From the IMG/VR virus record IMGVR_UViG_3300010052_000002, positions 1 to 59,369 of that record: a stretch of 59,369 bases of DNA; one strand, written 5' to 3'. Positions 18,045 to 52,228 of this stretch are shown here, one piece after another. Position 1 is the first letter of the stretch, and each line of letters starts with the position of its first letter. The position numbers were made by a program, and so were the translations under genes. The stretch comes from a virus. Taxonomy: Duplodnaviria > Caudoviricetes. The notes under the pieces are model-generated. The model saw nothing but the letters and a program-made list of their open reading frames with translations. It ran no database searches and had not been told where the DNA came from.

Positions 18045-18542
18045 ATGTCAACCACTTCTCAGAAACACAACCCTTTCCCCTACTGCCCGGAGCTGCCTCA
18101 GGACGGCAAGTGGACCGACTCGCAGTGGGCAAAGTTTTTGACCGACGCCCGCGTCGACGATTCGCCAAACAGGAAATCGCGGGTCGTAACGGTGCGTGCG
18201 TTTCGAGCCACGGTGAAGCGACTTGGAATCCGACATCGAATGCGATTCGGAGTGATGATTGTTGATGCAGAGGACTTCTATGACGACGCCATCGAGGACG
18301 CCGAAGAAGAAGACGAAGTCGAAGAGGGAGAACGGAGAGGGGACGTTCTGGAAGCGCCCAAACGGAACGTGGGTCGCGACCGTGACGATTCCCAACAGCG
18401 GGGGGAAACGCCTGAGCGTCTCGGCGCCAAGTCGGGACGCAATAAAAGTCGAACTGGACACGCTGAAGGATCTGGCGAGGCGCAAGGGAAGCGACCTCGC
18501 AAAGGCCGTGGAGCGAAAGAAGAACCGCCCGTTGACGGTTAG
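18045..18542 (+). CDS. Hypothetical protein overlapping the integrase 5' end (possible winged-helix/RDF-like N-terminus)
   Basis: ATG 18045; ordered N-terminal 80 aa, then a low-complexity tail inside int. Confidence 0.45.
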   Translation: MSTTSQKHNPFPYCPELPQDGKWTDSQWAKFLTDARVDDSPNRKSRVVTVRAFRATVKRLGIRHRMRFGVMIVDAEDFYDDAIEDAEEEDEVEEGERRGDVLEAPKRNVGRDRDDSQQRGETPERLGAKSGRNKSRTGHAEGSGEAQGKRPRKGRGAKEEPPVDG

Positions 18543-19503
18543 GGATGTCGCCACCGCCTACCTGAAGGATCTGCAGGCCGACACCGCGAAGGGTGAGGGA
18601 ACGCACGGGTGGTACAAGCGTTTCCTCACCTCGCTGTGCGAATACGAATTGACCCCCGGGCGGAAACTTGGGGATCGGCAGTTCGTTGACCTGCGCAAAG
18701 ACCACCTCAAGAAGTGGATTGCGACGAACACGTCGCCTCGCCCGGGGGAGCCCGGAAAGCCAGACAAGCCTCCACGCTGGAAGAAGTCGAACACCATCCG
18801 AGCGGCTGCCCGTTCGGTCGCCGCGATGTGCAACTGGGCAGTTGACTCGGATGGGGAGGACTACGAGCACGTCCACCGATCGCCGATTCATGGATTCGAA
18901 AAGGCGGCCGCTGAGGCTCGCGAATGCGACCTGTCCGCGGACGAGTGGAAAAGGCTGATTCGAAGCCAAGAGGGCAGTACGCAAATGAAGACGGATTTCC
19001 GCGAGGCAATCCTGTTCATGCGGCTGACGGGCTGCCGGCCGGGAGAGATGCGGCTCGCGGAGAAGCGGCACTTCGACCCAACCATTCCCGCGATCGTTTA
19101 TCCGGCGTCGGAGTGGAAGTGTGGAAAGAAATCCAAGTCGCCGAAGGATCGGGTGATTCGACTTCCGGGCGAGGCCCTGGTGATCATCCAGAAGCGTTGC
19201 TTGAAGTACCCGACCGGGAAGTTGTTCCGCGGGAAGAGCGACAAGCGATGGACCAAGGACATGCTTGCCCGGCGATTCAAGAGGCTCTCGGCTCCTGACA
19301 AGCTCAATATTCCGCACCTGGTGCCGTACAGCCTTCGACACACTTACGCGACGGACATGGCCTTCCGGATCGAGAATCCGATGATTCTGGCCGACCTGAT
19401 GGGAACGAGCGTGAAAATGCTCGAAACCGTCTATGCGAAGGTCCGCAAGCGGCAAGACCTGATGGGGCAGGCCGCCGCCAAGGCAATCGAGGGGATCGCG
19501 TGA
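18280..19503 (+). CDS. int: Tyrosine integrase
   Basis: N-terminal arm domain (RENGEGT...G.WVA), LTGCRPGE, YSLRHTYAT, LMGT, VYAK; adjacent to a tRNA-derived att site. Confidence 0.93.
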   Translation: MTTPSRTPKKKTKSKRENGEGTFWKRPNGTWVATVTIPNSGGKRLSVSAPSRDAIKVELDTLKDLARRKGSDLAKAVERKKNRPLTVRDVATAYLKDLQADTAKGEGTHGWYKRFLTSLCEYELTPGRKLGDRQFVDLRKDHLKKWIATNTSPRPGEPGKPDKPPRWKKSNTIRAAARSVAAMCNWAVDSDGEDYEHVHRSPIHGFEKAAAEARECDLSADEWKRLIRSQEGSTQMKTDFREAILFMRLTGCRPGEMRLAEKRHFDPTIPAIVYPASEWKCGKKSKSPKDRVIRLPGEALVIIQKRCLKYPTGKLFRGKSDKRWTKDMLARRFKRLSAPDKLNIPHLVPYSLRHTYATDMAFRIENPMILADLMGTSVKMLETVYAKVRKRQDLMGQAAAKAIEGIA

Positions 19504-19574: not shown

Positions 19575-19619
19575 TCGGGCTGGCGGGATTTGAACCCACG
19601 ACCTCTTGCACCCCAAGCA
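19575..19619 (-). other. attP core: 3' half of tRNA-Pro(GGG)
   Basis: Reverse strand reads TGC-TTGGGGT-GCAAG AGGTC GTGGGTTCAAATCCCGC CAGCCCG A (anticodon loop, T-arm, acceptor 3' strand). No 5' half is present. Confidence 0.88.
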
Positions 19620-19938: not shown

Positions 19939-20199
19939 ATGACGAAGACGAAAGCAATCACTGAGCCGCTGGAAGACGAGATCGCTGCGGATGAGGCGAC
20001 TGACAGCACGTTCGAAGTTCCCGACAAGCTGCGGGAGAAGTGGGCCTCAATCGCGGACGCGATGTCGGAGCTGAAAGTGTCTCGCGACACAATCGACCGG
20101 TGGCGGAAGGAGAAGAAGCTGGCGTGGCGCTACTACTACGGCAACCGCGTCCTGATTGCACGGGCGAGCATGAAAGCCCTGCTTGCTCCTTTCCTCTAA
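19939..20199 (+). CDS. Excisionase-like helix-turn-helix protein
   Basis: WASIADAMSELKVSRDTIDRWRK...RVLIAR; first gene beyond attP. Confidence 0.75.
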   Translation: MTKTKAITEPLEDEIAADEATDSTFEVPDKLREKWASIADAMSELKVSRDTIDRWRKEKKLAWRYYYGNRVLIARASMKALLAPFL

Positions 20200-20295: not shown

Positions 20296-21741
20296 ATGCG
20301 AAGCATCTTCCGCTATCCGGGTGGAAAGACGAAGCGGCAGATTCAGGACTGCATCATCAGTCACAAGCCGCCGGTTGTTCGCGAGTACCGAGAGTGCTTT
20401 GTCGGCGGCGGCGGGATCTTCTTCGGCCTGGAAAGCCAGATCGAGAACGTCTGGCTGAACGACAAGCACGAAGGGTTGATGGCGGTCTACTTCGCACTCA
20501 AGCATCGCCCCGACCAGTTCATCAAGGCGTGCCGCGAGATCGCCCCCGCCTGTGAAACGGACGGGATGACGGAGATCGGCAAGCGGGGCGGTCAGCCAAA
20601 GAACAAACGGCTATCGGCGAAGTTCGACGAACTGAAACTGAACGAGGATTGCGACCAGGCCCTTCGCTACTTCTTCGTGAACCGGACCGTCCACGGCAGC
20701 GGGCGGGTGAACTACGACATTCCGTCGCGGCTGTATTTCAGCAATCCCGACGGCTGGAACATCACGACGACTGACCTGCTGGAGTGTGCGGCCGAACTGC
20801 TGAAGAACGCCAAGCTGACGAAGGGCGACTATGCGGCAGTGATGGACGCCCCTGGCGAGGACGTGTGGATCTACGCAGACCCGCCGTACGTCGTGAACGG
20901 GAACCTGACCCGCACGTCGCAGCTGTATCAACACAGTTTCGACGCGGCCGATCATCGCCGTTTCGCCGAAGTCGTTCGCCGCTGCAAGCACAACGTCTGC
21001 GTCAGCTACGACGCCGACGACGACGGCTTCGTCCGCTCCCTCTTTCCTGAACCCCAGTTCCGCTTCGTGGAGTGCTCGTGGAAATACTCCGGCACGAGTG
21101 AGGAAGTGAAACGCGAGGGGAAGGAACTGCTGATCCTGAACTACGACCCGCCGGAAGGCCGGATCGTCATCGGGAACACTGAAGTCATCGATGGCTTTGT
21201 GGCAGGCGAACGGGAGCAGCTTCGCCAGCTTGAGCAGGTTATTGCGACCGGCATCAAGCGGCAGGCGAAGTCTTTCGTCGACATCGGCAAAGCCCTGGCT
21301 GCAATCCGCGATAGTGGTCAGCCATCGAGGCGTCTGTACCGGGCCACGCACGCAAAGTTTGAGGACTACTGCCGCGACCGGTGGAACATCAACGCAAGCC
21401 GGGCGTCTCAGTACATCACGGGAGCGTCTCGCCACGAAGCAGTCAAAACGCTTACCACGGTAAGTGTTCTCCCAAACAACGAGCGGCAAGTCCGCGAACT
21501 CGCTCGCCTCGAATCAGACGAACAGGCCGCTGAAGTCTGGCAGAAGGTTGTCGACTCAGTCAGCGGCCCAAAGGCGATCACGGCTGCGGTCATCCGCAAG
21601 CACGTCAACGAAGCAATTGGCTACGAGCCACCGGCACCGGCCGACAAGGTCGAGGTTGCCCGGAAGGCTCTTCTGAAGTTGTCCGCCGAACAGCTGTCTT
21701 TGCTGTTGGCTGAGTTCCTTAAACAAGCGGAGGCAGCATGA
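20296..21741 (+). CDS. Dam-like (D12 class) DNA adenine methyltransferase fused to a C-terminal helical domain
   Basis: FRYPGGK, ECFVGGG, IYADPPY and ELLILNY, followed by about 190 aa (IG.AL..IRD..LYR..H..FEDYC..RW). Confidence 0.88.
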   Translation: MRSIFRYPGGKTKRQIQDCIISHKPPVVREYRECFVGGGGIFFGLESQIENVWLNDKHEGLMAVYFALKHRPDQFIKACREIAPACETDGMTEIGKRGGQPKNKRLSAKFDELKLNEDCDQALRYFFVNRTVHGSGRVNYDIPSRLYFSNPDGWNITTTDLLECAAELLKNAKLTKGDYAAVMDAPGEDVWIYADPPYVVNGNLTRTSQLYQHSFDAADHRRFAEVVRRCKHNVCVSYDADDDGFVRSLFPEPQFRFVECSWKYSGTSEEVKREGKELLILNYDPPEGRIVIGNTEVIDGFVAGEREQLRQLEQVIATGIKRQAKSFVDIGKALAAIRDSGQPSRRLYRATHAKFEDYCRDRWNINASRASQYITGASRHEAVKTLTTVSVLPNNERQVRELARLESDEQAAEVWQKVVDSVSGPKAITAAVIRKHVNEAIGYEPPAPADKVEVARKALLKLSAEQLSLLLAEFLKQAEAA

Positions 21742-22088
21742 GCGCGTTGTCAGGTCTTCGGAAGTTCATGGCGGTCGCAAAGCCCGCAGTGCTCTGTCAC
21801 GCGATCCTGAACACCCAGGATCAGTTCCGCCAGTCGAAGCCGCTGGGGCTCAAGGCGGGCAGCGACGCATGGCTCTATCACAGCCACTTCCGCTCGCTTC
21901 TGACGTCTCAGGTCCGCGTCAACTGGGCACAGCTTTCGGGGCTTGATTCCTACCAGTGCCCGTTCACTGACGACGCGATCGTCCATCAGTGGTGCGTCAT
22001 GCGAAAGGACGTGACGACCCATGAGGAGATCGACGGAATCGAACTGGACGGCATTGTCGGCGACCTGCCGGACGAGGACCCGGAATGA
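21738..22088 (+). CDS. Hypothetical protein
   Basis: ATGA-coupled on both sides. Confidence 0.6.
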   Translation: MSALSGLRKFMAVAKPAVLCHAILNTQDQFRQSKPLGLKAGSDAWLYHSHFRSLLTSQVRVNWAQLSGLDSYQCPFTDDAIVHQWCVMRKDVTTHEEIDGIELDGIVGDLPDEDPE

Positions 22089-22588
22089 CCACCCCAACCA
22101 TCTCCCTTCAAATCCGCTGGCTCATCCGCCGCGATATGCCCGAGGTCCTCCAGATCGAGCGGACGAGCTTCGCCACGGCCTGGTCTGACGAAGATTTCCT
22201 CTGCTGCTTGCGTCAGCGCAACTGCATCGGAATGGTGGCCGAAGCGAATCATCAGATCGTGGGTTTCATGATCTATGAGCTGCACAAGGCCAAGCTGCAC
22301 ATCCTGAACTTCGCGGTTGCTCCTGAGTTCCGCCGCATGGGCGTCGGACGGCAGATGGTTCAGCGGCTCGTGGACAATCTGTCTCAGCAGCGGCGGCGGG
22401 AGATTCGCGTCTCGCTGCGTGAGAGCAATCTGCCTGGGCAGTTGTTCTTCCGGGCTGTCGGCTTCAAGGCCGTGGCCGTGGATCGCGGCTGCTACGACGA
22501 CACGAACGAGGACGCCTACCTGTTTCGGTTCCTGCTGTCGGATGAGGTGGCGGCGGAGCCGGCGGCTGAGGGGAGGGCTGTGCAGTGA
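22085..22588 (+). CDS. rimI: RimI-like GNAT acetyltransferase
   Basis: IRWLIRRDMPEVLQIE, ILNFAVAPEFRRMGVG (acetyl-CoA motif A), RESN..Q.FF...GF, EDAY. Confidence 0.88.
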   Translation: MTTPTISLQIRWLIRRDMPEVLQIERTSFATAWSDEDFLCCLRQRNCIGMVAEANHQIVGFMIYELHKAKLHILNFAVAPEFRRMGVGRQMVQRLVDNLSQQRRREIRVSLRESNLPGQLFFRAVGFKAVAVDRGCYDDTNEDAYLFRFLLSDEVAAEPAAEGRAVQ

Positions 22589-23227: not shown

Positions 23228-23512
23228 ATGGCGACGAAACGTAAGGCGGCGGTTGCGAAGCCGAAGACCGTGAAGTGTCGGATTCTGGTGGCGGTGGACA
23301 AGGAAGGCGGGGTCCTTGCCTGCAATGGCGACGACGCATGCTGCTATCGGCGACCCGGAGAAATGTCGGACGAGGAGGTGGTCGAGAACGCAGTCTTCAA
23401 CGCCGACGCCTCCCACGCATCGCAACTCACCCTCCGGTTCATCGAGGTCGAATTGCCCATTCCGACGCCGGAAGAACCGGCTGTCAAGACGCTGACCGTC
23501 ACCGACGTTTAG
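23228..23512 (+). CDS. Hypothetical protein
   Basis: GGAG RBS; follows a hairpin leader. Confidence 0.65.
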   Translation: MATKRKAAVAKPKTVKCRILVAVDKEGGVLACNGDDACCYRRPGEMSDEEVVENAVFNADASHASQLTLRFIEVELPIPTPEEPAVKTLTVTDV

Positions 23513-23614
23513 CCGCATTCCCATCAGGGCAGTCGAGCCTCTTGGGTTTAGCCCGCCTACTGCTGCTCCTGCCCTGGTGGGGATTTGAGACACCTTTTTT
23601 TCGAGGAGTGAGCG

Positions 23615-23923
23615 ATGTCGAAGCCCGTGAGTGCCGTCGCCGTGGCGGAACCAATGAAGCCAGGCGAAGCGGCTGCGTTCCACCTGCGAGTGCTGGGGAA
23701 GCCGTTCGGATCGTGGCACAAGCCGAAGGCGTTCAATGAGGCGCAACTGAAGTTTGGCGTCGGCATCCCGTTCAACGTCGGCAGCAATGAGGCGAAGCGT
23801 CGGCGACATGCGGTCCGCGGCACTCAATGCGGCTGCGGTCGCATGCAGAAGAACTGCGGTCTGCATTGCCCGTACCGGATTGGGCGATCCTCTTTCGCCA
23901 GCTATCAGCCTGAACAGAAGTAA
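23615..23923 (+). CDS. Hypothetical protein
   Basis: GAGGAG RBS; follows a hairpin leader. Confidence 0.55.
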   Translation: MSKPVSAVAVAEPMKPGEAAAFHLRVLGKPFGSWHKPKAFNEAQLKFGVGIPFNVGSNEAKRRRHAVRGTQCGCGRMQKNCGLHCPYRIGRSSFASYQPEQK

Positions 23924-23980
23924 CCGGACCCACGGACGGCCGCTGCGCACGGATGCACTTTTTCTCACAGGACCAATGCG

Positions 23981-24277
23981 ATGCACCGCTACGAGTTTGA
24001 ACTGTCCGTTGACCTCGGCAAGGCGATTCCAGAGGTCGGTTCGTTGTGCAGCGAACTGAATAGCCACATGTCCAGTGTGGGTTTCGACGAGCAGCTTTCC
24101 ATTTCCGCCCGCGTCGGTTGCATGACGCTGGAATCGTCAAGGCTTCTCACCAAAGAGGAGGAGAGCGAAATCGTGAAGCATCTCAATGCTGAATGTCACG
24201 AGCGTTTTTCGAGCCTTGGTATCCGCTGCACGAACGTGCGTCGTCAGCCGGGTAACGCCCCGCAGTCAGCCTCATAA
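23981..24277 (+). CDS. Hypothetical protein
   Basis: AGGA RBS; 98 aa. Confidence 0.55.
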   Translation: MHRYEFELSVDLGKAIPEVGSLCSELNSHMSSVGFDEQLSISARVGCMTLESSRLLTKEEESEIVKHLNAECHERFSSLGIRCTNVRRQPGNAPQSAS

Positions 24278-24299
24278 GTCGCTGCCAATGAAATGAGGC

Positions 24300-24712
24300 T
24301 ATATGCCGCTCGCGGCTGAAGTCTCGCCATAGCGCTGAGCAGTTAGTCGGGTTCCGCAGTAATTCGCTGGATTACGGCGGTGGATACCAAGAGGCGAGTT
24401 TGAAGCGTGCACGGACGCACTTACTGACCCGCCGCCCTCGGGCGCGTAGCTGCTGTGAATTCCTACCCAAGTCTTGGGTGTCAGCAACGGGGGCGGCGGG
24501 GTTTCTGAAATTGAAGGCGTATGTGGCGGCTGGGACTGAGTGACCCAGCCCGAACGCGGGGATAGAGACTCGTGGGGAATCGACGCTGCGGCCGTGTAAG
24601 TCGGTGGATTCCGATGGTCCGACGGCGCGATGCAATGACCCCTCAAAAACCATGACACCCCGACACAGGAAACGTGATGGAGAACCTGACAGCCGGGAAA
24701 GACCGGCACTTT
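24300..24712 (+). ncRNA. Candidate structured non-coding RNA region
   Basis: No credible ORF. Hairpins CCCGCCGCCC/GGGCGGCGGG (about 24428-24500), GGCTGGG/CCCAGCC and GCCGG-GAAAGA-CCGGC. Confidence 0.45.
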
Positions 24713-24714
24713 GA

Positions 24715-24812
24715 CCCGGGGCGGGACGCCGTGTGTTGATGACACCGGTCGGGAGTCCCGTGACCGCCCTCTCATCAGGGGCGATACGGCCGTTCGACTC
24801 GGCCCCCCGGAA
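24715..24812 (+). ncRNA. tRNA-like element, CAT anticodon, oversized D-arm
   Basis: Acceptor CCCGGGG/CCCCGGA; anticodon arm GCCCT-CTCATCA-GGGGC; variable loop GATAC; T-arm GGCCG-TTCGACT-CGGCC. Confidence 0.6.
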
Positions 24813-24839
24813 CTTTCACCAACCAACAGGAGACGAGCG

Positions 24840-25220
24840 ATGGCTGAGATGACGCCGCTTCAGAAGCGATGCCAGGAGTTGCTGCCGGTGATTCAGGCCG
24901 GGGCGGAGGGGAAGGCGATTCAGTGGAAGATTTCCGGCGATGAGTGGAATGACAACGAACCGTGCGACGCGAACTTCGTCGAGTGCTCCAAATACCGCAT
25001 CAAGCCGGAGTCGAAGTACCGGCCGTTCACGCCAGTGGAGGCCGCTCGTGAACTGCTGGGACACCTCATCGCCCGGGCAGGTGAGTGCGGCCACTCATTC
25101 GTCACAGCCATCAATGAGGGAGGCGTCTTGACCAACCTTCACGGCGACATTTCTTACCAGGAACTCGCGTCATCGTTCCTGAAGAACGGCGCCCCCTGCG
25201 GCGTCCTCGTCCAGGAATAA
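24840..25220 (+). CDS. Hypothetical phage protein
   Basis: AGGAG RBS; IQA.AEGK.IQ...YRIKPE..YRPF motif. Confidence 0.7.
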   Translation: MAEMTPLQKRCQELLPVIQAGAEGKAIQWKISGDEWNDNEPCDANFVECSKYRIKPESKYRPFTPVEAARELLGHLIARAGECGHSFVTAINEGGVLTNLHGDISYQELASSFLKNGAPCGVLVQE

Positions 25221-25268
25221 CCCCAGCGGCCGCGGCGGGGACGAAACACCTTTCAGGAGGAGAGGCGA

Positions 25269-25460
25269 ATGTTGGTTCTGAGCAGGAAGCAAGGCGAAGG
25301 GATCGTCATCGACAACAACGTCGTGATCACAGTCTCAAGCGTCAACGGCGGTCGTGTGAAGCTCGCGATCGACGCACCAGGCCACAAGAGCATTTACCGA
25401 CAGGAAGTGTGGCTGGAGTTGCAGGAAGAGCTGTCAACGAAACCAGGTGACGACCAATGA
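25269..25460 (+). CDS. csrA: Carbon storage regulator CsrA homolog
   Basis: MLVLSRK.GE.IVI...V.ITV......VKLAIDAP....IYRQEV. Confidence 0.92.
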   Translation: MLVLSRKQGEGIVIDNNVVITVSSVNGGRVKLAIDAPGHKSIYRQEVWLELQEELSTKPGDDQ

Positions 25461-26083
25461 CCAACCTCGACTTCGCGAGCTACCTGAACAGCGGTTGGAT
25501 TCAGACCTTCAGCGGTCATCGGATCTGGCCGTTTGCCCCAGAGCACGCAGAGAACCACTTCGACATCGAGGACATCGCCCATCACCTGGCGATGCAGGTT
25601 CGGTGGTCGGGCGCCGTCCGTCGGTTCTACAGCGTCGCCGAGCATTGCGTGCTTGGGTCCAAGATCGTCATGCAGCCGCTAGCCCTCCGATTCCTGATGC
25701 ACGACGCGGAAGAGGCTTATATCGGTGATATCTGCCGGCCCGTGAAGTTGCAGTTGTGGGTTGGTGCGCCGCTCTGCGAGCCGCTGATTCAGCTGAAGGA
25801 AGCCGGAGACCTGCTTCGTGCAGCAATTCTTCGCCAGCTCGGCATTGGCCCAATCGACGGATCGATCGAAGCATTCATCAAGGACGTCGATGACCAATTG
25901 ATGGTCCGCGAGGCCCTGGAGTTACTGAAGGGCGGCCCACATCGCGACTTCGCCATGCAGCCGAAAAACGGCTGGCCAGCCGCCGACGTCGTGCCGCTGT
26001 GTTGGTCTCCGGAAATTGCCGAACGGAAGTTCTTGGAACGGTTCGCGGAGCTGGCCGGTCGGGTGCCGGCCGCGATCGCCTGA
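25457..26083 (+). CDS. HD-domain phosphohydrolase (YfdR/YfbR-like nucleotidase)
   Basis: IEDIAHHLA...YSVAEHC...LMHDAEEAYIGD. Confidence 0.88.
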   Translation: MTNLDFASYLNSGWIQTFSGHRIWPFAPEHAENHFDIEDIAHHLAMQVRWSGAVRRFYSVAEHCVLGSKIVMQPLALRFLMHDAEEAYIGDICRPVKLQLWVGAPLCEPLIQLKEAGDLLRAAILRQLGIGPIDGSIEAFIKDVDDQLMVREALELLKGGPHRDFAMQPKNGWPAADVVPLCWSPEIAERKFLERFAELAGRVPAAIA

Positions 26084-26977: not shown

Positions 26978-28117
26978 ATGGCTGTTTTCCAGAAGGCTAC
27001 GCGCAAGCAAGTTCGGTTGCGGATGGCTCTCGACGGACTGCCCGGCGCGGGAAAAACGTTCACGGCCCTGCGATTCGCAACCGCTCTTACCCAGCACTTT
27101 GGCGGCCGGATCGCTGTCATCAACACAGAGTCCGGAGCCGTCGAGAAGTACCTCGGCCTCAACCCTGATGGCATCCCGTTCGACTTCGACATCCTCACGC
27201 TGACGGATTTCGCACCGACGTCCTACACGTCGGCGATCCAGGCCGCCGGCCGCGAGGGCTACACAGTCTGCATCGTCGATTCACTGTCCCATGCCTGGGA
27301 GGGCGAGGGCGGCGCGCTCGATCAGGTCGATCGCAAGTCCGAGAAGAACAAGTTCACGGCATGGAAGGACGTCACACCTCAGCATCGCGGGATGATTGAG
27401 TCGCTGCTGCGGTCTCCCTGTCACGTCATTGTGACGATGCGGACCAAGATGGATTACGTGCTGGAAGAAGACGAACGGGGAAAGAAGGTCCCCCGCAAAG
27501 TCGGCTTGAAGCCCGTCCAGCGAGAGGGCATGGAGTACGAATTCGACATCATCATGGATCTCGACGAATTGCATCTGGGCCGAGTCTCAAAAAGCCGCTG
27601 CCCCGACGTCGATGGCCTGCGGGTGATGAAGCCTGACGCGACGTTCCTATCGCCCGTCATCCGATGGCTGAACGAAGGCTCAGAAGTCGACGCCGGACAC
27701 TTCGCGACGAAAGAGTCGGACCTAAAGGCCCTCCAGGATCGCGACCGTCGCGAAGCCGCCCAGCAACCCCAGAAGCCCGTCAACTTCCGCGACCAACTGA
27801 CCGGCGGTGGAACGTCATCTGCCTCCACACAGGTGGCGTCTCCCCCGTCCGCTGCGGATAGCAATGAACCTCTCGCCGAGGAAGGTCAGATCCTCCACAT
27901 CCGCAGTCTGTTCGAACAGTGCGAGATTCCCCCGGAAGCCGCAAAAGGCATCATCGCGAAGCGCGGCGTCACGGCGATCAAGGACCTGACTCAGGCCCAA
28001 GCGAAGGAACTGATCGACGGGCTGTTGGCAATGCACAAGAAGGTTGTCGCGGAGAAGCGGGCGGCGCAGGACGCGGCGGATCTGGCTGCGAAAGAAGCCG
28101 CTGGCGTTCCCTGGTGA
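26978..28117 (+). CDS. Sak4-like AAA ATPase (single-strand annealing protein)
   Basis: Walker A GLPGAGKT, IVDSLSHAW, EYEFD. Confidence 0.85.
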   Translation: MAVFQKATRKQVRLRMALDGLPGAGKTFTALRFATALTQHFGGRIAVINTESGAVEKYLGLNPDGIPFDFDILTLTDFAPTSYTSAIQAAGREGYTVCIVDSLSHAWEGEGGALDQVDRKSEKNKFTAWKDVTPQHRGMIESLLRSPCHVIVTMRTKMDYVLEEDERGKKVPRKVGLKPVQREGMEYEFDIIMDLDELHLGRVSKSRCPDVDGLRVMKPDATFLSPVIRWLNEGSEVDAGHFATKESDLKALQDRDRREAAQQPQKPVNFRDQLTGGGTSSASTQVASPPSAADSNEPLAEEGQILHIRSLFEQCEIPPEAAKGIIAKRGVTAIKDLTQAQAKELIDGLLAMHKKVVAEKRAAQDAADLAAKEAAGVPW

Positions 28118-28961: not shown

Positions 28962-31364
28962 ATGAGTCGCGAGAAGGAAGAGATCACCGGCACCTACGTC
29001 ATCGAGAAGATGCGGTGGGACAACACTGCGATCGCGACGATCCGCGACACGAACAACAAGGTCGTCACGATCAAAGGCCCATGTGAACCGGAAGATCTGA
29101 CCCCCTCAACAACCTATCGGTTCTACGGCTCATTCAAGCCCTATACGAACCCCCGCACAAAAGTCACCGAACAGCAGTTCCACTTCACAACGTTCGTGAA
29201 GACTGCCCCGCATGGCCGGGCTGGCACGATCAGCTACCTCCGCGAGGTCGAAGGCATTGGCCAGAAGACTGCGGAAAAGCTCTACGACACATACGGCGGA
29301 AATGCCGTCCAGACTCTTCGGGAGATACCGGACGTCGTCTGCGACACGATTTGCATGCCGCACTTCACTCATGAGAAGGCCCGCCGAGCGGCGGAGTACC
29401 TGGTCGAGCAGAAGGCGATGGAAGGATGCACGATCGACCTGATCGACGCCCTTGCCGGACGCGGGTTCCCGAAAGTCACCGCCCGCGCCGCTGTCGCGAA
29501 ATGGGGCAACCGAGCAGCCGACGTCATTAAGCGGTGCCCGTACTACCTGATGGCGTTTCGTGGCTGTGGATTCCTGAAGACGGACGCGATGTATTGCGAC
29601 CTCGGCAAGAACCCGGCCGCTCTTCGTCGGCAGGGGTTGTGTGCCTGGCACTTTCTCGCGACCGAGTCGTCTGGGAATACGTGGCAGCCGGTCGCGAAGG
29701 TTGAGGAAGCGTTGCGGCAGAAGATCGGCGGAACTCGCGTCGATCCTGTCAGCGCCCTCCGGTTCGCGAAGCGGGCCCGGATGATCGCGACCCGTCGGGA
29801 TGAGCATGGCCGGTTGTGGATCGCAGAAAAGAAGGACGCGGACCACGAGGGGCGAATTGCGGGATACCTGGCAGCCGCACGCGATTGGACGTGCCAATGG
29901 CCGGACCTGGCCAGCCTCGACGGAATCTCCGATCACCAGCGCGCCGAACTGGCTGCAGCCTTGCGGGGGTCGATCGCAATCCTCGGTGGAGCACCGGGGA
30001 CCGGAAAGACCTTTACCGCGGCCGCCCTCATCAAGACTTTGGTGGAATTGATCGGCGAAGAGTGGATCGGCGTCGCCGCCCCGACCGGGAAGGCTGCGGT
30101 TCGCGTCACGGAGAACCTCCAGAAATACAACCTGCCGGTCCGCGCCCGCACGATCCACTCAATGCTCGGCGTGAAGAAGAACGATTCCACTGACGGTTGG
30201 TCGTTCGAACACAACGAGGGCAACGTTCTCCCGTACCGCGTGATCATCATCGACGAGTCATCGATGATCGATAACGGATTGATGTGCTCATTCCTGGCGG
30301 CAGTTGCTCCCGGAACCTTGGTCCTTTTCGTCGGCGACACGAACCAACTCCCACCAGTCGGCCGCGGGGCCCCCCTCCGCGACATGACCACCGCCGGCGT
30401 CCCTACGGGAGTTCTGACGGAGATACGTCGGAACTCCGGTGCGATCGTTCGTGCGTGTCACGCGATCAAGGACGGGAAGCCATTCGAGACCTCAACCAGA
30501 ATCGACGTCAATGGGGATGATCCGGCGAACCTGTACCTCGTCCAGGCCGGCGCCCCGGAACATCAGATCGAGCGAATGTTCGCGGGCATCGAAGCCGGCC
30601 GGGCGGATGGATTGAATCCAATCTGGGACTGCCAGGTCCTCGTCGGCGTCAACGCGAAGAGCAAGTTGAGCCGGAAGGACCTCAATCGAGTTCTCCAAGA
30701 GCGGCTGAATCCCCACGGCGAACAGGCCCAGGGGAATCCGTTCCGGGCCGGCGACAAGATCGTCTGCCTGAAGAATGGGTTCGTCGAAGTGGATGGCGAG
30801 GGTGGTCCGCAGCCGCAGTCGTTCCCTCCAGATCCAGTCGAAACAGAAGAACCCGAAACCGACGACGACGGCAAGGTCTACGTTGCGAACGGGGAGCTCG
30901 CCGAGGTCCTCCGCGTCGAAGAGAAACTGACGATCGCGAAGCTCTCGAATCCACTGCGGATCGTGAAGATCCCTCGTGGCGTCGCTAAGGGTGGCGAAGG
31001 GGACGACGGTGGGAAAGTAGGAGCGGACGGTGCAGGTGGGTCAGGTGATGGGGCCGCCAGTGACACCGGCTGTTCCTGGGACCTCGGCTACGCCCTCTCC
31101 TGTCACAAGTCGCAGGGAAGCGAATGGCCGCTTGTCCTGGTGATGCTCGACGAATACCCGGGCGCCCGGATGGTGTGTTCGCGAGAGTGGCTGTACACGG
31201 CAATCAGCCGGGCGAAACGGCTGTGCCTTCTCGTCGGGAAGATGGGGACGGCGACTGGGATGTGCCGGCGCCAGGCCTTGGGTTTGAGGAAGACGTTTTT
31301 GGTCGAGGAGATCCGGGGTGCGATGACGTCAGCGGTGACTTCAACGGAGGTGACCACCCCGTGA
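28962..31364 (+). CDS. recD2: RecD2-like SF1B helicase
   Basis: HhH (EGIGQKTAEK), GAPGTGKT, IIDESSM, VGD.NQLPPVG, HKSQGSE, LYTAISRA. Confidence 0.92.
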   Translation: MSREKEEITGTYVIEKMRWDNTAIATIRDTNNKVVTIKGPCEPEDLTPSTTYRFYGSFKPYTNPRTKVTEQQFHFTTFVKTAPHGRAGTISYLREVEGIGQKTAEKLYDTYGGNAVQTLREIPDVVCDTICMPHFTHEKARRAAEYLVEQKAMEGCTIDLIDALAGRGFPKVTARAAVAKWGNRAADVIKRCPYYLMAFRGCGFLKTDAMYCDLGKNPAALRRQGLCAWHFLATESSGNTWQPVAKVEEALRQKIGGTRVDPVSALRFAKRARMIATRRDEHGRLWIAEKKDADHEGRIAGYLAAARDWTCQWPDLASLDGISDHQRAELAAALRGSIAILGGAPGTGKTFTAAALIKTLVELIGEEWIGVAAPTGKAAVRVTENLQKYNLPVRARTIHSMLGVKKNDSTDGWSFEHNEGNVLPYRVIIIDESSMIDNGLMCSFLAAVAPGTLVLFVGDTNQLPPVGRGAPLRDMTTAGVPTGVLTEIRRNSGAIVRACHAIKDGKPFETSTRIDVNGDDPANLYLVQAGAPEHQIERMFAGIEAGRADGLNPIWDCQVLVGVNAKSKLSRKDLNRVLQERLNPHGEQAQGNPFRAGDKIVCLKNGFVEVDGEGGPQPQSFPPDPVETEEPETDDDGKVYVANGELAEVLRVEEKLTIAKLSNPLRIVKIPRGVAKGGEGDDGGKVGADGAGGSGDGAASDTGCSWDLGYALSCHKSQGSEWPLVLVMLDEYPGARMVCSREWLYTAISRAKRLCLLVGKMGTATGMCRRQALGLRKTFLVEEIRGAMTSAVTSTEVTTP

Positions 31365-31954: not shown

Positions 31955-34294
31955 ATGGCGACCCCGATTCACGAACGAATCCAAGACATCCTTTCCCGAC
32001 TCGGCGATGTAAACGTCGAGAAGGAGGGTGTTGAATGGGGTGCACTCTGTCCCGCGCACGACGACACTCGTCGATCGCTGTCGATCGGCGTTGGCGACGA
32101 TGAGCGGCTTCTCATTTCATGCCACGCAGGCTGTTCGGCCGCGGCGGTCATGTGTGCGATCAACCTCCCGATCTCGACGCTTTTTGCCGGAGGCGATGGG
32201 CGAGACAAATCGAAGCCCGCGACGGCGAGGGGAAAAAAGCAAAAGGGTCTCGGCAAAATCGTCGCGACCTACGACTACACGGATGCGGCCGGCACGCTGC
32301 TGTTTCAAGTCGTCAGATACGATCCGAAGGACTTCCGTCAGCGTCGCCCCCGTGTCGCCGGCACAACACCCGCCGCCGACGATTCGGCCGGCTGGTCGTG
32401 GTCCGTCAAAGACGAGCAGAAGGTTCCGTACCGTCTCCCGTCGATCGTCAACGCCCCGCCAGGCTCGACGATTCATATCGTCGAGGGCGAAAAGGACGCC
32501 GATCGTTTGGTGGCGTTGGGGTTGATTGCAACCACAAGTCCCGGCGGAGCGGGCGGAACCAAGAAAGACAAAAGCGAAGTCGGCGGAAAATGGCTCACCA
32601 CGCCAGCGTTCACAGACTCTTTTCGTGGTCGCCACGTCGTCATTCTTCCCGATAACGACGACGTCGGCCGGCAGCACGCCCACGACGTCGCGTCGAAGCT
32701 CCTGCCGATCGCGGCCTCAGTCAAGGTTGTCGCCTTGCCTGGTCTTCCGAACAAGGGCGACGTCAGCGACTTCCTGACGGCTGGCGGCACGTCATCGCAG
32801 CTCGAGGTGATTGTCGCTGAGGCTCCTCTTTGGGATCCGGCACCGGTCAAGCCTGTTGAGAAACGTGACGACCCGCACCGCCTGGCGAGGATTGTCATCG
32901 CCGAATACCGCCGCGTGATCTTCTGGCGGGAAGAGTTCTACGTCATGCGATTTGAATCGCCTCGTCGGCCAGCAGATCGATGCTACGTCCGAATGGAGAA
33001 GTCGAAATGGCGGTCGAACGTCAATCAAATCATCAAGCGGGAGTTCGACCGGCTGAACACTGAGGACACGCGGGCGAACCCTGGAAAGATCCATTACTGC
33101 GAGAAGGTGACGACACAGCTCGTTTCGAACGTCATCTGCGCGATTCAATCTCTGACGGCGATGAGCGGCGAAGTGGAGCTCGGGTCCTGGCTGTCCGATA
33201 CCGGACCAGCAGTGAAGCGACCGTGGGTCTCACTCACGAACGGGATATTCAAGGTTGACGTCGCGATCGAGGGCCGGCCCGTCGAAGAGTTTCTGTTGGA
33301 GCATGATCACCGGTGGTTCTCGACGACGACGCTGCCGTTTGCGTTCGACTGGGATGCAGCTTGCCCAAAGTTCGATGCTTACTTGCGGAGCTCCCTCGAA
33401 GCGGACCAAGAACGAATCACGCTCCTGCAGCAATGGGCCGGCTACCTCCTGACTCCTGACACGAATCAACAGAAGTTTCTCATCCTGGAAGGTGAAGGCG
33501 CCAATGGCAAATCCGTCTATCTGGCCGCCATGGAAGCTCTCTTGGGGAAGGACAACGTCTCGCACGTCGCCCTCGAAATCTTCGGCCAGCGATTCCAGTT
33601 GACCTCTACCCTCGGAAAGCTCGCCAACGTCTGTGCGGACTGTGGGGAAATCGACGCGGTCGCAGAAGGCTACCTGAAGTCGTTCACGTCGGGCGATCGG
33701 ATGCAGTTCGATCGGAAGGGGCTGTCCGCGATCGATGTCACGCCGACCGCCCGCCTCATGATTGCCACCAACAACCGCCCACGCTTTTCGGATAAGTCAT
33801 CAGGGATCTGGCGCCGCATGCTCCTCATCCCGTTCACCTACGAAATCCCTGTCGAGGATCGCGTTGCCGGCATGGACAAACCTGAGTTCTGGGCGGAGCA
33901 AGGTGAGCTCTCTGGGATCTTTAATTGGGCACTGGCCGGACTCCAACTCCTCCGGGCAGAGCGGCGGTTCATCGTCCCGGCAATCTGTCGCGCCGCCCTG
34001 GAGGAGTACCGCCTCGAGGTAAATCCGGCCCGGGCCTTCCTCTTGGAAGCCTATAAGCCGGCAGACACCGAGGACCAATTTGTCTCCTGCATGGACGTCT
34101 ATGAGTCCTATTCAAAGTTCTGCGAGTCCCACGGATACCGCCGGCTCGGCCAGGCGTCATTCGGGAAAGAGTTTTCGCGGGTGTTTCCTATGTCGTTGAA
34201 AGTGCGTCGCGGATCACACGCTGAGAGGTTCTGGGCGTATGGGAAGCTCCAAAAGAATGAGGAGACTTCCTTGTTCGACAAGACGAGTTTTTGA
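31955..34294 (+). CDS. Primase-helicase (Zn finger, TOPRIM, D5/P4-type SF3 helicase)
   Basis: CPAHDD...CHAGC, IVEGEKD, PDND, GEGANGKS, ATNNRP, IWRR. Confidence 0.92.
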   Translation: MATPIHERIQDILSRLGDVNVEKEGVEWGALCPAHDDTRRSLSIGVGDDERLLISCHAGCSAAAVMCAINLPISTLFAGGDGRDKSKPATARGKKQKGLGKIVATYDYTDAAGTLLFQVVRYDPKDFRQRRPRVAGTTPAADDSAGWSWSVKDEQKVPYRLPSIVNAPPGSTIHIVEGEKDADRLVALGLIATTSPGGAGGTKKDKSEVGGKWLTTPAFTDSFRGRHVVILPDNDDVGRQHAHDVASKLLPIAASVKVVALPGLPNKGDVSDFLTAGGTSSQLEVIVAEAPLWDPAPVKPVEKRDDPHRLARIVIAEYRRVIFWREEFYVMRFESPRRPADRCYVRMEKSKWRSNVNQIIKREFDRLNTEDTRANPGKIHYCEKVTTQLVSNVICAIQSLTAMSGEVELGSWLSDTGPAVKRPWVSLTNGIFKVDVAIEGRPVEEFLLEHDHRWFSTTTLPFAFDWDAACPKFDAYLRSSLEADQERITLLQQWAGYLLTPDTNQQKFLILEGEGANGKSVYLAAMEALLGKDNVSHVALEIFGQRFQLTSTLGKLANVCADCGEIDAVAEGYLKSFTSGDRMQFDRKGLSAIDVTPTARLMIATNNRPRFSDKSSGIWRRMLLIPFTYEIPVEDRVAGMDKPEFWAEQGELSGIFNWALAGLQLLRAERRFIVPAICRAALEEYRLEVNPARAFLLEAYKPADTEDQFVSCMDVYESYSKFCESHGYRRLGQASFGKEFSRVFPMSLKVRRGSHAERFWAYGKLQKNEETSLFDKTSF

Positions 34295-49745: not shown

Positions 49746-50295
49746 GTCAATAAGCAGCGCAAATCCGGTTGTTGTTGAGAGGAGAGCACGCATTGCCAGT
49801 GGAAGACGACGCGAACGAGCCCGCACCACGCGAATCGTCGAGATGGCGGAGTTCGCAGGCGTCTCGGAGCAGGCGCTGCGGGCGTGGATGCGTTTGCCTG
49901 GATTCCCGCGGGCCCCAGACGGCTCGGTATGCCTGTGGGACCTCGCCATCTGGAAGCACCGCTACGACAAGGGCGGTGACGTGTCGGAAGAGATTCCCGA
50001 CGGCGTTGACTCCCCGGCTCTTGAGGAGTTTCGCCGGGCCCGGGCGGAGCAGGAAAAGATCAAGCTGCTTCGGATGCAGGGGGAGTTTGTTTCGCTGGAG
50101 GACGTTCACGCGGCGATGGCGGAAACAGCATCGGTGATGAAGTCCACTGCCGAGCGGATCATGCGAGACGCCGGCAATGATGTTGCGTTGATGCTGAATG
50201 AGGCTTGGGACGAGGTCGAGCGGCGACTGGAGCACCTTTTCAAAGATGGTCGTGGTGGCGGAGAGGACGACAGCTCGAACGGCGCTGCTGAATGA
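49744..50295 (+). CDS. terS: Terminase small subunit (Nu1-like)
   Basis: HTH (MAEFAGVSEQALRAW...GFP), coiled coil, GEFV; start codon uncertain. Confidence 0.8.
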   Translation: MSISSANPVVVERRARIASGRRRERARTTRIVEMAEFAGVSEQALRAWMRLPGFPRAPDGSVCLWDLAIWKHRYDKGGDVSEEIPDGVDSPALEEFRRARAEQEKIKLLRMQGEFVSLEDVHAAMAETASVMKSTAERIMRDAGNDVALMLNEAWDEVERRLEHLFKDGRGGGEDDSSNGAAE

Positions 50296-52228
50296 GTGGC
50301 GCTGGTGGGCGAGGTCGTGTGCGGTTCAGCCACTTAGGGGAATGCGTGCATTCGCTGAGGCCGAGGTTGTCATTCCTGACGGCCCGTTCCAGGGGCGACG
50401 ATTTCGTTGTGACCGCCAGCCGTGGTCCGGCCTGTGGTTCGATGCGATTGACTCTGACAAGTACCAGCGATTCGCGGCGACTGGACCAAGCCAGAGCGGG
50501 AAGACGCTGTCCTGTTACGTGATCCCGACCATGTACCACCTGTTCGAGATCGGAGAAACGGTGGTCTGCGGCGTGCCGAAGATGGACATGGCCCACGACA
50601 AGTGGGAGCAGGATTTCCTGCCGGCCATCCGGGCATCGCGGTTCGCCGACCTGCTGCCGACGAAGGGGCGAGGCTCGCGAGGTGGAACGTTTGATTCGAT
50701 CACGTTTCGGAATGGCGCGACGCTGCGGTTTATGACCGGCGGAGGTGACGACAAGAGCCGTGCTGGGTTTACGTCCCGGGTCGTCGTGGTGACGGAGGTG
50801 GATGGCCTGGATAAGTCGTCAGAGTTGTCCCGCGAGGCCGACCCGATCAAGCAGTTGGAGGCGAGGACGCGGGCCTACGGCAGTCGCCGGCGGATCTACC
50901 TGGAATGCACGGTGTCGACCAAAGACGGTCGCATCTGGCAGGAGTATAGCCAGGGCACGGAATCGAAGATCGTCGCGCCCTGCCCGCACTGTGGCCGATG
51001 GATCACTCCAGAGCGGAAGGACATGCTCGGCTGGGATGGGGCGGTGAGTGAGTTTGAGGCGGAGGAACGAGGACAGTTCTTCTGCCCGCTGGATGGTTGT
51101 GCGGCCGGATTGTCCGAGCAGCAGCGAGTTGAGGCGAATCGGGCGGCGAGGTTGATTCATCGAGGACAGGTGGTCGGTGCGGACGGCGAGGTTGCCGGGG
51201 AGATGCCGCAGACGCGGACGCTGGGCTTTCGGTGGTCGGCGTTCAACAACCTGTTCATCTCGTCGGGGGAGCTTGCGGCGGAGGAGTGGAAATCGTCACG
51301 GGAAGCGGACGAGGAGAACGCGAACCGCGAGCGGAATCAATTCGTGTGGTGTGTTCCGGCCGATGCTGCCGAGCAATCGGTGACGGAGCTCCATCCACGG
51401 GACATCATCCAGCGGCAGGGGGAGTTCGAGCGAGGGGTGCTGCCGACCGGCTGTCAGGCGGTGACGGCGTTCATCGACGTGGGTAAGCACCTGTTGCACT
51501 GGACCGCGAAGGGCTGGTCTCCGGAGCCGTTTGGATACACGGTCGATTACGGAGTGGAGGACGTCTACTCGCGGGAAATGGGCGAGGAAGTGGCGATCCT
51601 GTCGGCGATCCGTAAGTGCATAGAGACCCTGATGGGCGGGTTCCCTCAGGGCGACGTGATGCGGAAGCCGGCCGCGATCCTGGTGGACTCCGGCAACTGG
51701 ACAACGACAGTCTACGCCGCGTGCCTGGAGGCTCGTGCGGCCGGTTATCCGGTGTGGCCGGCAAAGGGGTTCGGAAGCGGCGTGTTCGGCCGCATCAACT
51801 ACTCGAAACCGAGCGGGGTTGGGCAGAAGGTGACGTGGATCGGCGACGGGATGCACGTTGTCCGCGAGACGATTGATGGACGGCGACTGGAGCTCGTCGA
51901 GATCAACGCAGATGAGTGGAAATCCAAGACCCATTCGCGGCTCGAATGCGACAAGTCGAAGCCCGGGGCGATCCTGCTGTTCAAGGCGGATTCGAAAGAG
52001 CACTGGAAGTACTCGCAGCACCTGACCGCAGAAAAGAAAACGGAAGAGTTCGTGGTCGGCAAGGGCTGGCAGACGAAGTGGGCCAAGGTGTCGAAGGCGA
52101 ATCACTGGCTTGATAGCGAGGCTGGTGCGAATGCGGCTGCCGAGTTGATCGGCGTGCGTGTCGTGCAGCTCGTGAAGACCGTGAAGCCGCGAATGAGTTT
52201 GTCCGCAATCCAGGCGTCAAAGCGATGA
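50246..52228 (+). CDS. terL: Terminase large subunit (lambda GpA family)
   Basis: SQSGKT, VTEVD, PCPHCG, IDVG, VDSG, NHWLD. Confidence 0.92.
   Translation: MVVVAERTTARTALLNEWRWWARSCAVQPLRGMRAFAEAEVVIPDGPFQGRRFRCDRQPWSGLWFDAIDSDKYQRFAATGPSQSGKTLSCYVIPTMYHLFEIGETVVCGVPKMDMAHDKWEQDFLPAIRASRFADLLPTKGRGSRGGTFDSITFRNGATLRFMTGGGDDKSRAGFTSRVVVVTEVDGLDKSSELSREADPIKQLEARTRAYGSRRRIYLECTVSTKDGRIWQEYSQGTESKIVAPCPHCGRWITPERKDMLGWDGAVSEFEAEERGQFFCPLDGCAAGLSEQQRVEANRAARLIHRGQVVGADGEVAGEMPQTRTLGFRWSAFNNLFISSGELAAEEWKSSREADEENANRERNQFVWCVPADAAEQSVTELHPRDIIQRQGEFERGVLPTGCQAVTAFIDVGKHLLHWTAKGWSPEPFGYTVDYGVEDVYSREMGEEVAILSAIRKCIETLMGGFPQGDVMRKPAAILVDSGNWTTTVYAACLEARAAGYPVWPAKGFGSGVFGRINYSKPSGVGQKVTWIGDGMHVVRETIDGRRLELVEINADEWKSKTHSRLECDKSKPGAILLFKADSKEHWKYSQHLTAEKKTEEFVVGKGWQTKWAKVSKANHWLDSEAGANAAAELIGVRVVQLVKTVKPRMSLSAIQASKR

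Follow-up and report, generated by a model that had tools for sequence, protein, structure and literature searches.

Does the 98-nucleotide (nt) element at positions 24715-24812 of the viral genome IMGVR_UViG_3300010052_000002 encode a transfer RNA (tRNA), the remains of one, or an RNA that has only the shape of one? We have addressed this question in the window, which is the whole assembly of that single virus record (59,369 nt). The element derives from a tRNA-Met gene and has a hairpin expansion of the D-loop, and we give about an even chance to the reading that it encodes a tRNA-shaped RNA that is processed and does not decode. By analogy, such an RNA would be of one kind with the phage tRNA-like RNAs that are exemplified by the 'tRNA-like stable RNAs' of phage T5.

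From the predicted fold, it can be seen that all five helices of the element are intact, two of them with one G·U pair each. The minimum free energy (MFE) and centroid structures from RNAfold give the same cloverleaf, which is kept when the flanks are included (24680-24845). The acceptor stem is made of six Watson-Crick pairs and a C1·A72 mismatch, and the discriminator A24812 is followed by ACTTTC, so that no CCA is encoded. The T-loop is canonical, with 7 nt (TTCGACT) within a G53:C61-type pair; a 5-base-pair (bp) stem with a TTCRANY loop occurs four times when both strands of the window are counted. The variable region measures 4-5 nt, and the anticodon is CAT (24773-24775). Nearly all canonical tRNAs have a purine at position 37, where the element has C (24776).

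The D region (24722-24764) takes up 43-44 nt, compared with about 17-19 nt in ordinary tRNAs. In the RNAfold structure, the inserted segment 24728-24749 adds 9 bp coaxial with the D-stem, an internal loop CGGGA (24750-24754) keeps GG-N-A where G18, G19 and A21 would fall, and a linker TGAC (24761-24764) comes next; there are 4-5 extra bases ahead of the anticodon stem. This is not a canonical D-arm, since position 8 is C, there is no A14 and no linker separates the acceptor from the D-stem; positions 8, 14, 26 and 37 are all non-canonical. A preliminary description of the locus had set out the fold arm by arm, and it is reproduced here both on the sequence and by RNAfold. Its remarks on the missing CCA, on C37 and on anticodon-stem G-C pairs inverted relative to tRNA-fMet were correct, the last as checked against initiator tRNAs of candidate hosts, and its argument that the intact stems speak against simple decay is a fair reading of the sequence and of the RNAfold structure. 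A reading on the minus strand was set aside, because by crude gene calling the + strand carries nearly all genes of the window, and the minus-strand loop would be without U33.

The intact element escapes the standard tRNA finders. ARAGORN calls no tRNA in the window, and Rfam gives no match there at the gathering score, its tRNA model having none at 24500-25000 even at E <= 10. The sole sub-threshold Rfam match, to a Tymovirus tRNA-like element (11.3 bits against a gathering score of 40, E 9.9), was taken as chance. A single in-silico deletion in the D region, in contrast, brings out an ARAGORN tRNA call in 187 of 611 trials. All 60 of the calls that were printed are tRNA-Met(cat) and start at base 24715, and the call-restoring deletions are 20-32 nt long and start at tRNA positions 5-31. 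With 21-32 nt removed, both ends of the tRNA-Met(CAT) that is called agree with those in the preliminary description. As a control, 88,680 deletions of 22, 25 or 30 nt were tiled over the whole window. Junction-spanning calls arose at two places only: the element had 32, of which 28 were tRNA-Met cat, and a place near 27846 had 2. The tRNA-specific pattern clearly exceeds what chance would give, and it is this evidence that carries the claim; thermodynamics alone would not, because the folding z-scores (given below) are only modest. The earlier observation of a tRNA-like RNA is confirmed, and chance does not account for it.

Interrupted tRNA-like sequences were met at about seven distinct places (9 clusters) with at least 6 calls in 934 kilobases (kb) of phage contigs, which hold 139 native tRNAs. 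Cryptic tRNA-like genes that ARAGORN can call after a 22-30-nt deletion lie at L034 ~3131, L055 ~6961 and L062 ~3445 and in L068, L072, L100 and L111. Examples among them are tRNA-Lys(ttt) and tRNA-Ser(tga), and the insertion is mostly in the anticodon or variable region and not in the D-arm.

To what ancestor the element goes back is indicated by a covariance model, R1, that was built from the element and its fold and run over 130 sources. R1 matches the element itself with 124 bits; next best is a phage tRNA-Met(CAU) at L040 1976-2050 (30.7 bits, E 0.0013), and then another at L044 4648-4721 (27.4 bits, E 0.0067). In both alignments all arms are covered and the D region alone is deleted, and elsewhere in the 130 sources the model found ordinary tRNAs or weak matches only. 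Since R1 matches ordinary phage tRNA-Met genes, the alignments indicate that the element descends from a gene of the phage tRNA-Met(CAU) type. This result and the ARAGORN calls restored by D-region removal both bear out the suggestion, made earlier, of a tRNA with a D-arm insertion. The ordinary phage tRNA-Met genes (L040, L044 and L001 2710-2783) have the acceptor, the CAU anticodon arm and the T-arm in common with the element, the T-arm of L040 being GTTCGACTC, and they too lie in early regions, sometimes behind the same leader hairpin that is described below. Compared with them, the element has a longer D region, C37, C8 and C·A at 1:72, and goes undetected by ARAGORN and Rfam.

We have also compared the element with four initiator tRNA genes from candidate host genomes (the probable host is dealt with below). 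As in bacterial initiator tRNA, the element has an unpaired C1, C3:G70, G4-G7:C66-C69, a discriminator A and CAU. Its mismatch of C24715 opposite A24811 had been called initiator-style; C1·A72 is also found in two of the four candidate-host genes, the other two having C opposite C1. The 2:71 pair, however, is C:G in the element and G:C in all four. Three consecutive G:C pairs (29-31:39-41) close the anticodon stem of bacterial initiator tRNA; among the candidate-host genes the full GGG/CCC stem is present in one, and three have GG/CC next to the loop. In the element the pairs towards the loop are C:G, C:G and U·G, so that the initiator G:C pairs are inverted. Its T-arm sequence also differs from those of the candidate-host initiator tRNAs, and only in the element is the D region expanded.

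Seven nt upstream of base 1 of the tRNA-like RNA ends a 22-nt leader motif, TGACAGCCGGGAAAGACCGGCA, the hairpin of which is present in the MFE fold of 24680-24845. It is the commonest variant of the motif, and it occurs once in the window, also when 3 mismatches are allowed or the hairpin pattern is relaxed. Its 19-base core, GACAGCCGGGAAAGACCGG, has at least 117 exact matches in IMG/VR contigs, and for a 30-base stretch including the 22-mer there are matches in 35 deposited phage records, with an identity of >= 99% in 16. Phages that match the leader include those infecting E. coli (mEp390), Klebsiella, Cronobacter, Pseudomonas, Stenotrophomonas, Acinetobacter and cyanobacteria. Of the 108 distinct sequence contexts taken from IMG/VR downstream of the core, 21 have a canonical tRNA beginning 3-13 nt after it (ARAGORN), and an acceptor/T-arm frame follows the core in 31, at a distance of 5-9 nt in 29 and of 17-18 nt in 2. 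In about 10 of the 31 the body measures 61-198 nt, and in 2 it measures 29-35 nt. Of 87 non-canonical leader contexts, 10 become callable by ARAGORN after one in-silico deletion, and among these the window element alone has a consistent identity (25 of 25 calls tRNA-Met). Other leader instances precede terminator-like hairpins, long-range-helix RNAs or ribosome-binding sites.

Some variants of the stem carry compensatory changes (TGCGG/CCGCA, GTCCG/CGGGC, GCCCG/CGGGC) and keep GACA and the GAAAGA loop, which suggests that the leader acts as a structured strand. It also appears to be portable between genomes, to judge from the comparison of instances in pairs and from the absence of a common neighbouring protein: 6,210 of 6,328 pairs have only the motif in common, 18 are alike upstream and unlike downstream and 2 show the reverse, and the largest family of neighbouring proteins is present in just 8 of the 108 loci. 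The idea of a common neighbouring protein as partner of the leader was dropped on this count. In L001, the same 22-mer (2820-2841) ends 4 nt before a tRNA-Thr, and the tRNA-Met and tRNA-Thr of that contig lie about 3 kb upstream of its AAA_24 gene; the 22-mer at 24687-24708 is the sole DNA that the window gap around the element and L001 have in common. No Rfam family matches the window leader or the mEp390 stretch that holds the hairpin, and literature text searches for the leader motif and for a GAAAGA hairpin with phage tRNA found nothing relevant.

A known hairpin system with which the leader can be compared is the lambda-type nut boxB. Both have a 5-bp G+C-rich stem, a purine-rich G-A-rich loop and a place near the start of a transcription unit, and the leader, like nut boxB, sometimes precedes terminator-like hairpins; unlike nut boxB, it has a six-base loop and an invariant GACA 5' of the stem, and its hosts are very different. 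The leader agrees with GGAAAGTCCGG, a stretch of the P4 region of RNase P RNA in four genomes, at 10 of 11 bases; this likeness was rejected as not better than that of shuffled motifs, 61-87 of 300 of which reach the score (7 of 300 in one genome).

Several other leader-bearing loci have arrangements of their own. In enterobacterial phages (E. coli phage mEp390, L329 2501-2700; Klebsiella phage P7641, L353 702-800; and L078), an RNA of about 80-100 nt with a closing long-range helix comes after the leader; in mEp390 a terminator-like hairpin comes after this RNA, and the leader lies in a leftward operon after the repressor gene and a small open reading frame (ORF). Relatives of Stenotrophomonas phages BUCT708/709 (L046, L059, L067, L085, L087 and L116) have 2-3 leader copies in about 300 nt, with stems that are different but compensating, interleaved with short hairpins; a conserved segment between their leaders is found in mEp390 too, ahead of the terminator-like hairpin. 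Leader-linked tRNA look-alikes with an odd anticodon region occur in L052, L014, L044 (the first element after the leader), L010, L073 and L083; they have either no anticodon arm (acceptor, D-arm and T-arm only) or a malformed anticodon loop, for which ARAGORN gives 'tRNA-???'. Two leader-bearing contigs hold matches to Rfam families, the D12-methyl RNA (L069 13359-13422, 82.8 bits) and the DUF805b RNA (L082 3595-3629, 47.5 bits). The window has a D12 methyltransferase gene and no Rfam match to D12-methyl RNA.

One sequencing run, X1, contains the stretch in full and may be its source. A second copy of the element was found in X2, a sequencing run of another study that is labelled metagenomic RNA-Seq and is possibly DNA. 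Of two 151-nt contigs, one covers 24687-24740 with no differences and carries 97 nt upstream that are unlike the window, and the other covers 24721-24870 with 3 differences. The leader, the tRNA-like RNA and the start of the next ORF thus occur in a second genomic context. Since the match starts exactly at the first leader base and what lies upstream is unrelated, the leader behaves as a mosaic boundary. X2 shows presence and modularity, and neither expression nor selection.

Other searches for relatives gave nothing that could be used. The 23-mer of T-arm and acceptor has no exact match in IMG/VR and none in genome_contigs (GTDB), which holds one genome per prokaryote species for 185,579 species. 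When 5 candidate host genomes were searched with the element by BLAST, the best E was 0.13, and R1 had no match at E <= 0.001 in 151 genomes of the candidate host's order, a search that had no positive control. The downstream ORF (24840-25220) has no relative in IMG/VR and 339 in metagenome contigs. The ORF homologues start at the same ATG, and the tRNA-like stretch is thus non-coding. None of the 80 kept loci of these relatives has the leader motif (with up to 4 substitutions), 79 of the 80 have a G+C content of <= 0.48, and the only G+C-rich one, L121, has no tRNA and no T-arm. For the AAA_24 gene, there is one IMG/VR relative, L001, at 62% identity, which has a match for only 2 of 18 window proteins tested; the helicase gene as query found no relative. 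The AAA_24 protein has matches in 5 of 401 Planctomycetota genomes (42-48% identity), and four upstream regions that were fetched for these contain no leader and no tRNA-like RNA. A literature search on D-arm or D-loop insertions gave nothing on phages among the matches listed.

How such an RNA could arise and be released can be laid out as a model. A tRNA-Met gene would have acquired, in the 5' half of its D-loop, a structured hairpin of about 22-25 nt, as well as a few bases before the anticodon stem, and would fill the slot 5-9 nt behind the leader in which many unrelated phages have tRNAs or look-alikes. A + strand transcript would run through the gap together with the neighbouring genes. 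RNase P needs little beyond the acceptor/T-arm stack; host RNase P could thus recognise the intact 7+5-bp stack and cut at 24714/24715, the 3' end would be trimmed after A24812, and a host enzyme would add CCA. This would yield a tRNA-shaped RNA of about 100 nt, an upstream fragment ending in the leader hairpin and, downstream, a messenger RNA (mRNA) for the ORF of 126 amino acids, with its ribosome-binding site about 20 nt from the new 5' end. The minimal role of the released RNA would be that of a cutting signal. Proteins that deal with initiator or methionine tRNA may also have it as a decoy or ligand, and the untouched acceptor, T-arm and CAU arm would suit binding by such tRNA-handling proteins.

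A decoding tRNA is unlikely in view of C37, C8, the remodelled core and the bulky D-arm, and for this reason we read the element as a processed, non-decoding mimic. Several points weigh against this reading. The folding z-score of the element alone is -2.10 (7 of 200 shuffles are as stable), only a modest gain, and with flanks it is -1.18 (22 of 200). C8, the missing A14 and C37 are changes at positions kept by almost all tRNAs. The base before the supposed cut site is A, whereas most leader-linked tRNAs have T there, and ordinary tRNAs occupy the same slot in other phages, so that the slot does not require the odd form. The X2 run is possibly DNA, and its contigs cannot show RNA ends; the near identity of that copy attests presence with no sign of selection. 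All the searches described above returned no diverged homologue of the element, and hence no basis for covariation.

Part of these data would be expected if the element were a recently disabled tRNA-Met pseudogene, with a D-loop insertion and point changes, that is too young to have decayed, and we consider this explanation the main rival, less likely than not but serious. ARAGORN and Rfam do not detect the element, the near-universal C8/A14/purine-37 positions are lost (C8, no A14, C37), only one lineage and a near-identical copy are known, a related phage has normal tRNAs in the slot, and tRNA-like sequences with interruptions turn up time and again, at low frequency, in phage contigs (the seven or so places in 934 kb). 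A decaying gene fits less well with five intact helices that contain a single G·U in each of two, with the unchanged T-loop and D-loop GG-N-A, and with a module kept as a unit in the second genomic context; moreover, the inserted segment folds into a 9-bp helix of its own in continuation of the D-stem, and nothing would oblige a random insertion to do so. That the element is instead a working tRNA, initiator-like or elongator Met or Ile2, in which the D-loop expansion is tolerated and C37 perhaps confers insensitivity to an anticodon nuclease, appears to us improbable. C37 stands where a purine is nearly universal, the three initiator anticodon-stem G:C pairs are inverted with U·G as the closing pair, and 2:71 is C:G against G:C in the four candidate-host initiators; U8 and A14 are missing, 4-5 extra bases precede the anticodon stem and a 22-nt hairpin would project from the elbow region. 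Such a tRNA would nevertheless be in keeping with CAU, U33, A73, a C1·A72 as in bacterial initiators and the canonical T-arm, and a published report (PMC10264068) describes changes in the anticodon loop of phage tRNAs by which these are predicted to evade host tRNases, and names VapC-LT2 as targeting tRNA-fMet. A more far-reaching proposal, which we think has little chance of being right, is that the leader is a swap slot for RNA cassettes and the element an initiator-tRNA mimic, acting as a decoy or inhibitor against a host factor by which initiator tRNA is handled or attacked (a VapC-type anticodon nuclease, for example), within a takeover set with the CsrA and RimI homologues. Cassettes would then be exchanged by recombination at the common 22-mer; the acceptor end and CAU arm would have been kept and the core rebuilt around the extra hairpin, and the RNA would act after its release by RNase P.

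Two further explanations have already lost nearly all their ground. A chance cloverleaf in GC-rich non-coding DNA would be compatible with folding z-scores of only -2.1 and -1.2, but it is very unlikely already, as the element is the sole strong locus in the 88,680-deletion control, its T-loop is canonical, R1 matches tRNA-Met genes and the leader upstream precedes tRNAs in many phages. Since tRNA 3' halves are common att cores and the phage is temperate, with an integrase (Table 1), the element could also be thought of as the remnant of a tRNA-targeted attachment site, either an attP or the old att scar that the preliminary description had considered. This is contradicted by the data, and we leave it next to no probability: the 23-mer of T-arm and acceptor matches neither database, the element has the acceptor strand of the 5' side as well as a full anticodon stem, and the real att-type fragment lies elsewhere. 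Just 3' of the integrase gene, on the minus strand (19619-19575), a T-arm pattern scan found the 45-nt 3' part of a tRNA-Pro(GGG) gene. Its 29-base core is exact in at least 120 genome contigs and the full 45 bases are identical at 7 loci; of five named 45-base loci, four are from Planctomyces, Planctomycetia or Planctomycetaceae and one is labelled Alcaligenaceae. In L282 the tRNA-Pro fragment occurs without the 5' half, as at a prophage junction. The minus-strand stretch 19575-19619 is probably the attP core of the phage, and its identity to planctomycete tRNA-Pro genes points to Planctomycetota as the probable host. The element, 5.2 kb from the integrase, has neither identity to a host tRNA nor adjacency to the integrase, both of which 19575-19619 has, and with the true att site there the idea of an old att remnant is disposed of.

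Returning to the reading as a processed, non-decoding tRNA-shaped RNA, precedents are RNA1 (144 nt) and RNA2 (125 nt) of phage T5, annotated in GenBank AY543070 as 'tRNA-like stable RNA with unknown functions'. Like the element, they are phage-encoded, have an acceptor/T-arm frame around an over-long body and are called by ARAGORN only after in-silico deletion. Unlike the element, they have the extra material after a normal D-arm and no clear anticodon arm left; their ARAGORN identities after deletion are inconsistent, whereas that of the element is consistently tRNA-Met. They have no GAAAGA leader within 40 nt upstream, and the T5 host is E. coli. There is no likeness in sequence, as R1 has no match at E <= 10 in the T5 locus (L357). 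The T5 RNAs are a precedent for the accumulation of tRNA-shaped phage RNAs. With the published argument that phage tRNAs evade host tRNases through anticodon-loop changes (PMC10264068), they provide a context in which a decoy or escape role of the element, speculative as it is, can be seen.

Archaeal tRNA genes can have D-arm introns, which are spliced by an enzyme. They resemble the element in having a D-region interruption that standard finders miss, but the host here is bacterial, as judged from the att site, and the splicing endonuclease is not known from bacteria. A further comparison is offered by the t-elements of plant mitochondria, which are presented in PMC1920247 as tRNA-like, non-decoding structures proposed to direct tRNA-processing enzymes in the formation of mRNA ends. 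The likeness lies in a tRNA-like structure near an mRNA, the element standing 27 nt before an ORF; the t-elements are organellar, whereas the element is from a phage and keeps a complete anticodon arm.

Phage tRNA-shaped stable RNAs with no assigned function, such as T5 RNA1 and RNA2, have been known for decades. The present element would be an unusually clean example, with a clear tRNA-Met ancestry, one structured insertion and the other arms untouched, and is thus a simple substrate for asking which tRNA enzymes (RNase P, the CCA-adding enzyme, MetRS and nucleases) accept such an RNA. It also ties the phage tRNA-like RNAs to a 22-nt leader hairpin that is identical across phages of very different hosts. 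If it is only a dead gene, it serves as a warning that interrupted phage tRNA genes can escape tRNA finders.

The features of the window are collected in Table 1. Matches to the integrase, terminase, capsid-protease and other families indicate that the phage is temperate and tailed. Within the early/replication part of this genome, the element sits in an inter-ORF gap (23923-24840, about 900 nt). The preliminary description had placed it near csrA and rimI, and both genes are indeed present, the former with a TIGR00202 score just under the cut-off and the latter with a TIGR01575 score above it. It had hinted at a translation-control module; none of the analyses made here links the two genes to the RNA. 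The leader hairpin, the temperate nature of the phage and the tRNA-derived att site at 19575-19619 were absent from that description.

Table 1. Features of the element, its surroundings and the phage genome (positions in the window)
Feature	Position	Strand	Details
Tyrosine integrase	18259-19503		Family search
Excisionase-family match	19939-20199		Weak
D12 DNA methyltransferase	20296-21741		Family search
GNAT acetyltransferase, RimI-type	22085-22588		167 amino acids; TIGR01575 90.3 bits against cut-off 86.4; best PDB match E 5.9e-18
Leader motif, 22 nt	24687-24708	+	GACA, then 5-bp hairpin (24692-24696 with 24703-24707), GAAAGA loop
tRNA-shaped RNA gene, tRNA-Met-derived	24715-24812	+	98 nt including discriminator A24812
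Acceptor 5' strand CCCGGGG	24715-24721	+	Pairs with CCCCGGA 24805-24811
Expanded D-arm	24722-24760	+	Outer 6-bp stem CGGGAC/GTCCCG: 24722-24727 with 24755-24760 (RNAfold)
Inserted inner hairpin	24728-24749	+	4 + 5 bp, 3-nt loop (RNAfold)
Anticodon arm	24765-24783	+	6-bp stem including one U·G; 7-nt loop CTCATCA; U33
T-arm GGCCG-TTCGACT-CGGCC	24788-24804	+	Abuts acceptor 3' strand 24805-24811
Downstream ORF	24840-25220	+	126 amino acids; starts 27 nt 3' of the tRNA-like RNA; GGAG ribosome-binding site
CsrA-like ORF	25269-25460		63 amino acids; TIGR00202 66.6 bits, just below cut-off 70.1; E 1.6e-18
dNMP phosphatase	25457-26083		Family search
AAA_24/Sak4-like protein	26978-28117		Family search
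RecD/Dda-like helicase	28962-31364		Family search
Primase	31955-34294		Family search
Large terminase	50198-52228		Family search
Capsid-protease fusion	54903-57062		Family search

The ORF downstream of the element has no match in Pfam, PHROGs or NCBIfam. The idea that the GNAT protein is an aminoacyl-tRNA-acetylating toxin was dropped, because its best matches are RimI. No sigma-70 promoter and no intrinsic terminator was found in 23500-25300. At 24428-24500, about 190 nt upstream of the leader, there is an inverted repeat whose 13-bp arms (complementary at 12 of 13 positions) stand 47 nt apart, followed by GTTTCTG; it was not called by the simple terminator scan, and may be a terminator or a structured RNA. 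The first 4 nt of the acetyltransferase gene are shared with a small ORF (21738-22088).

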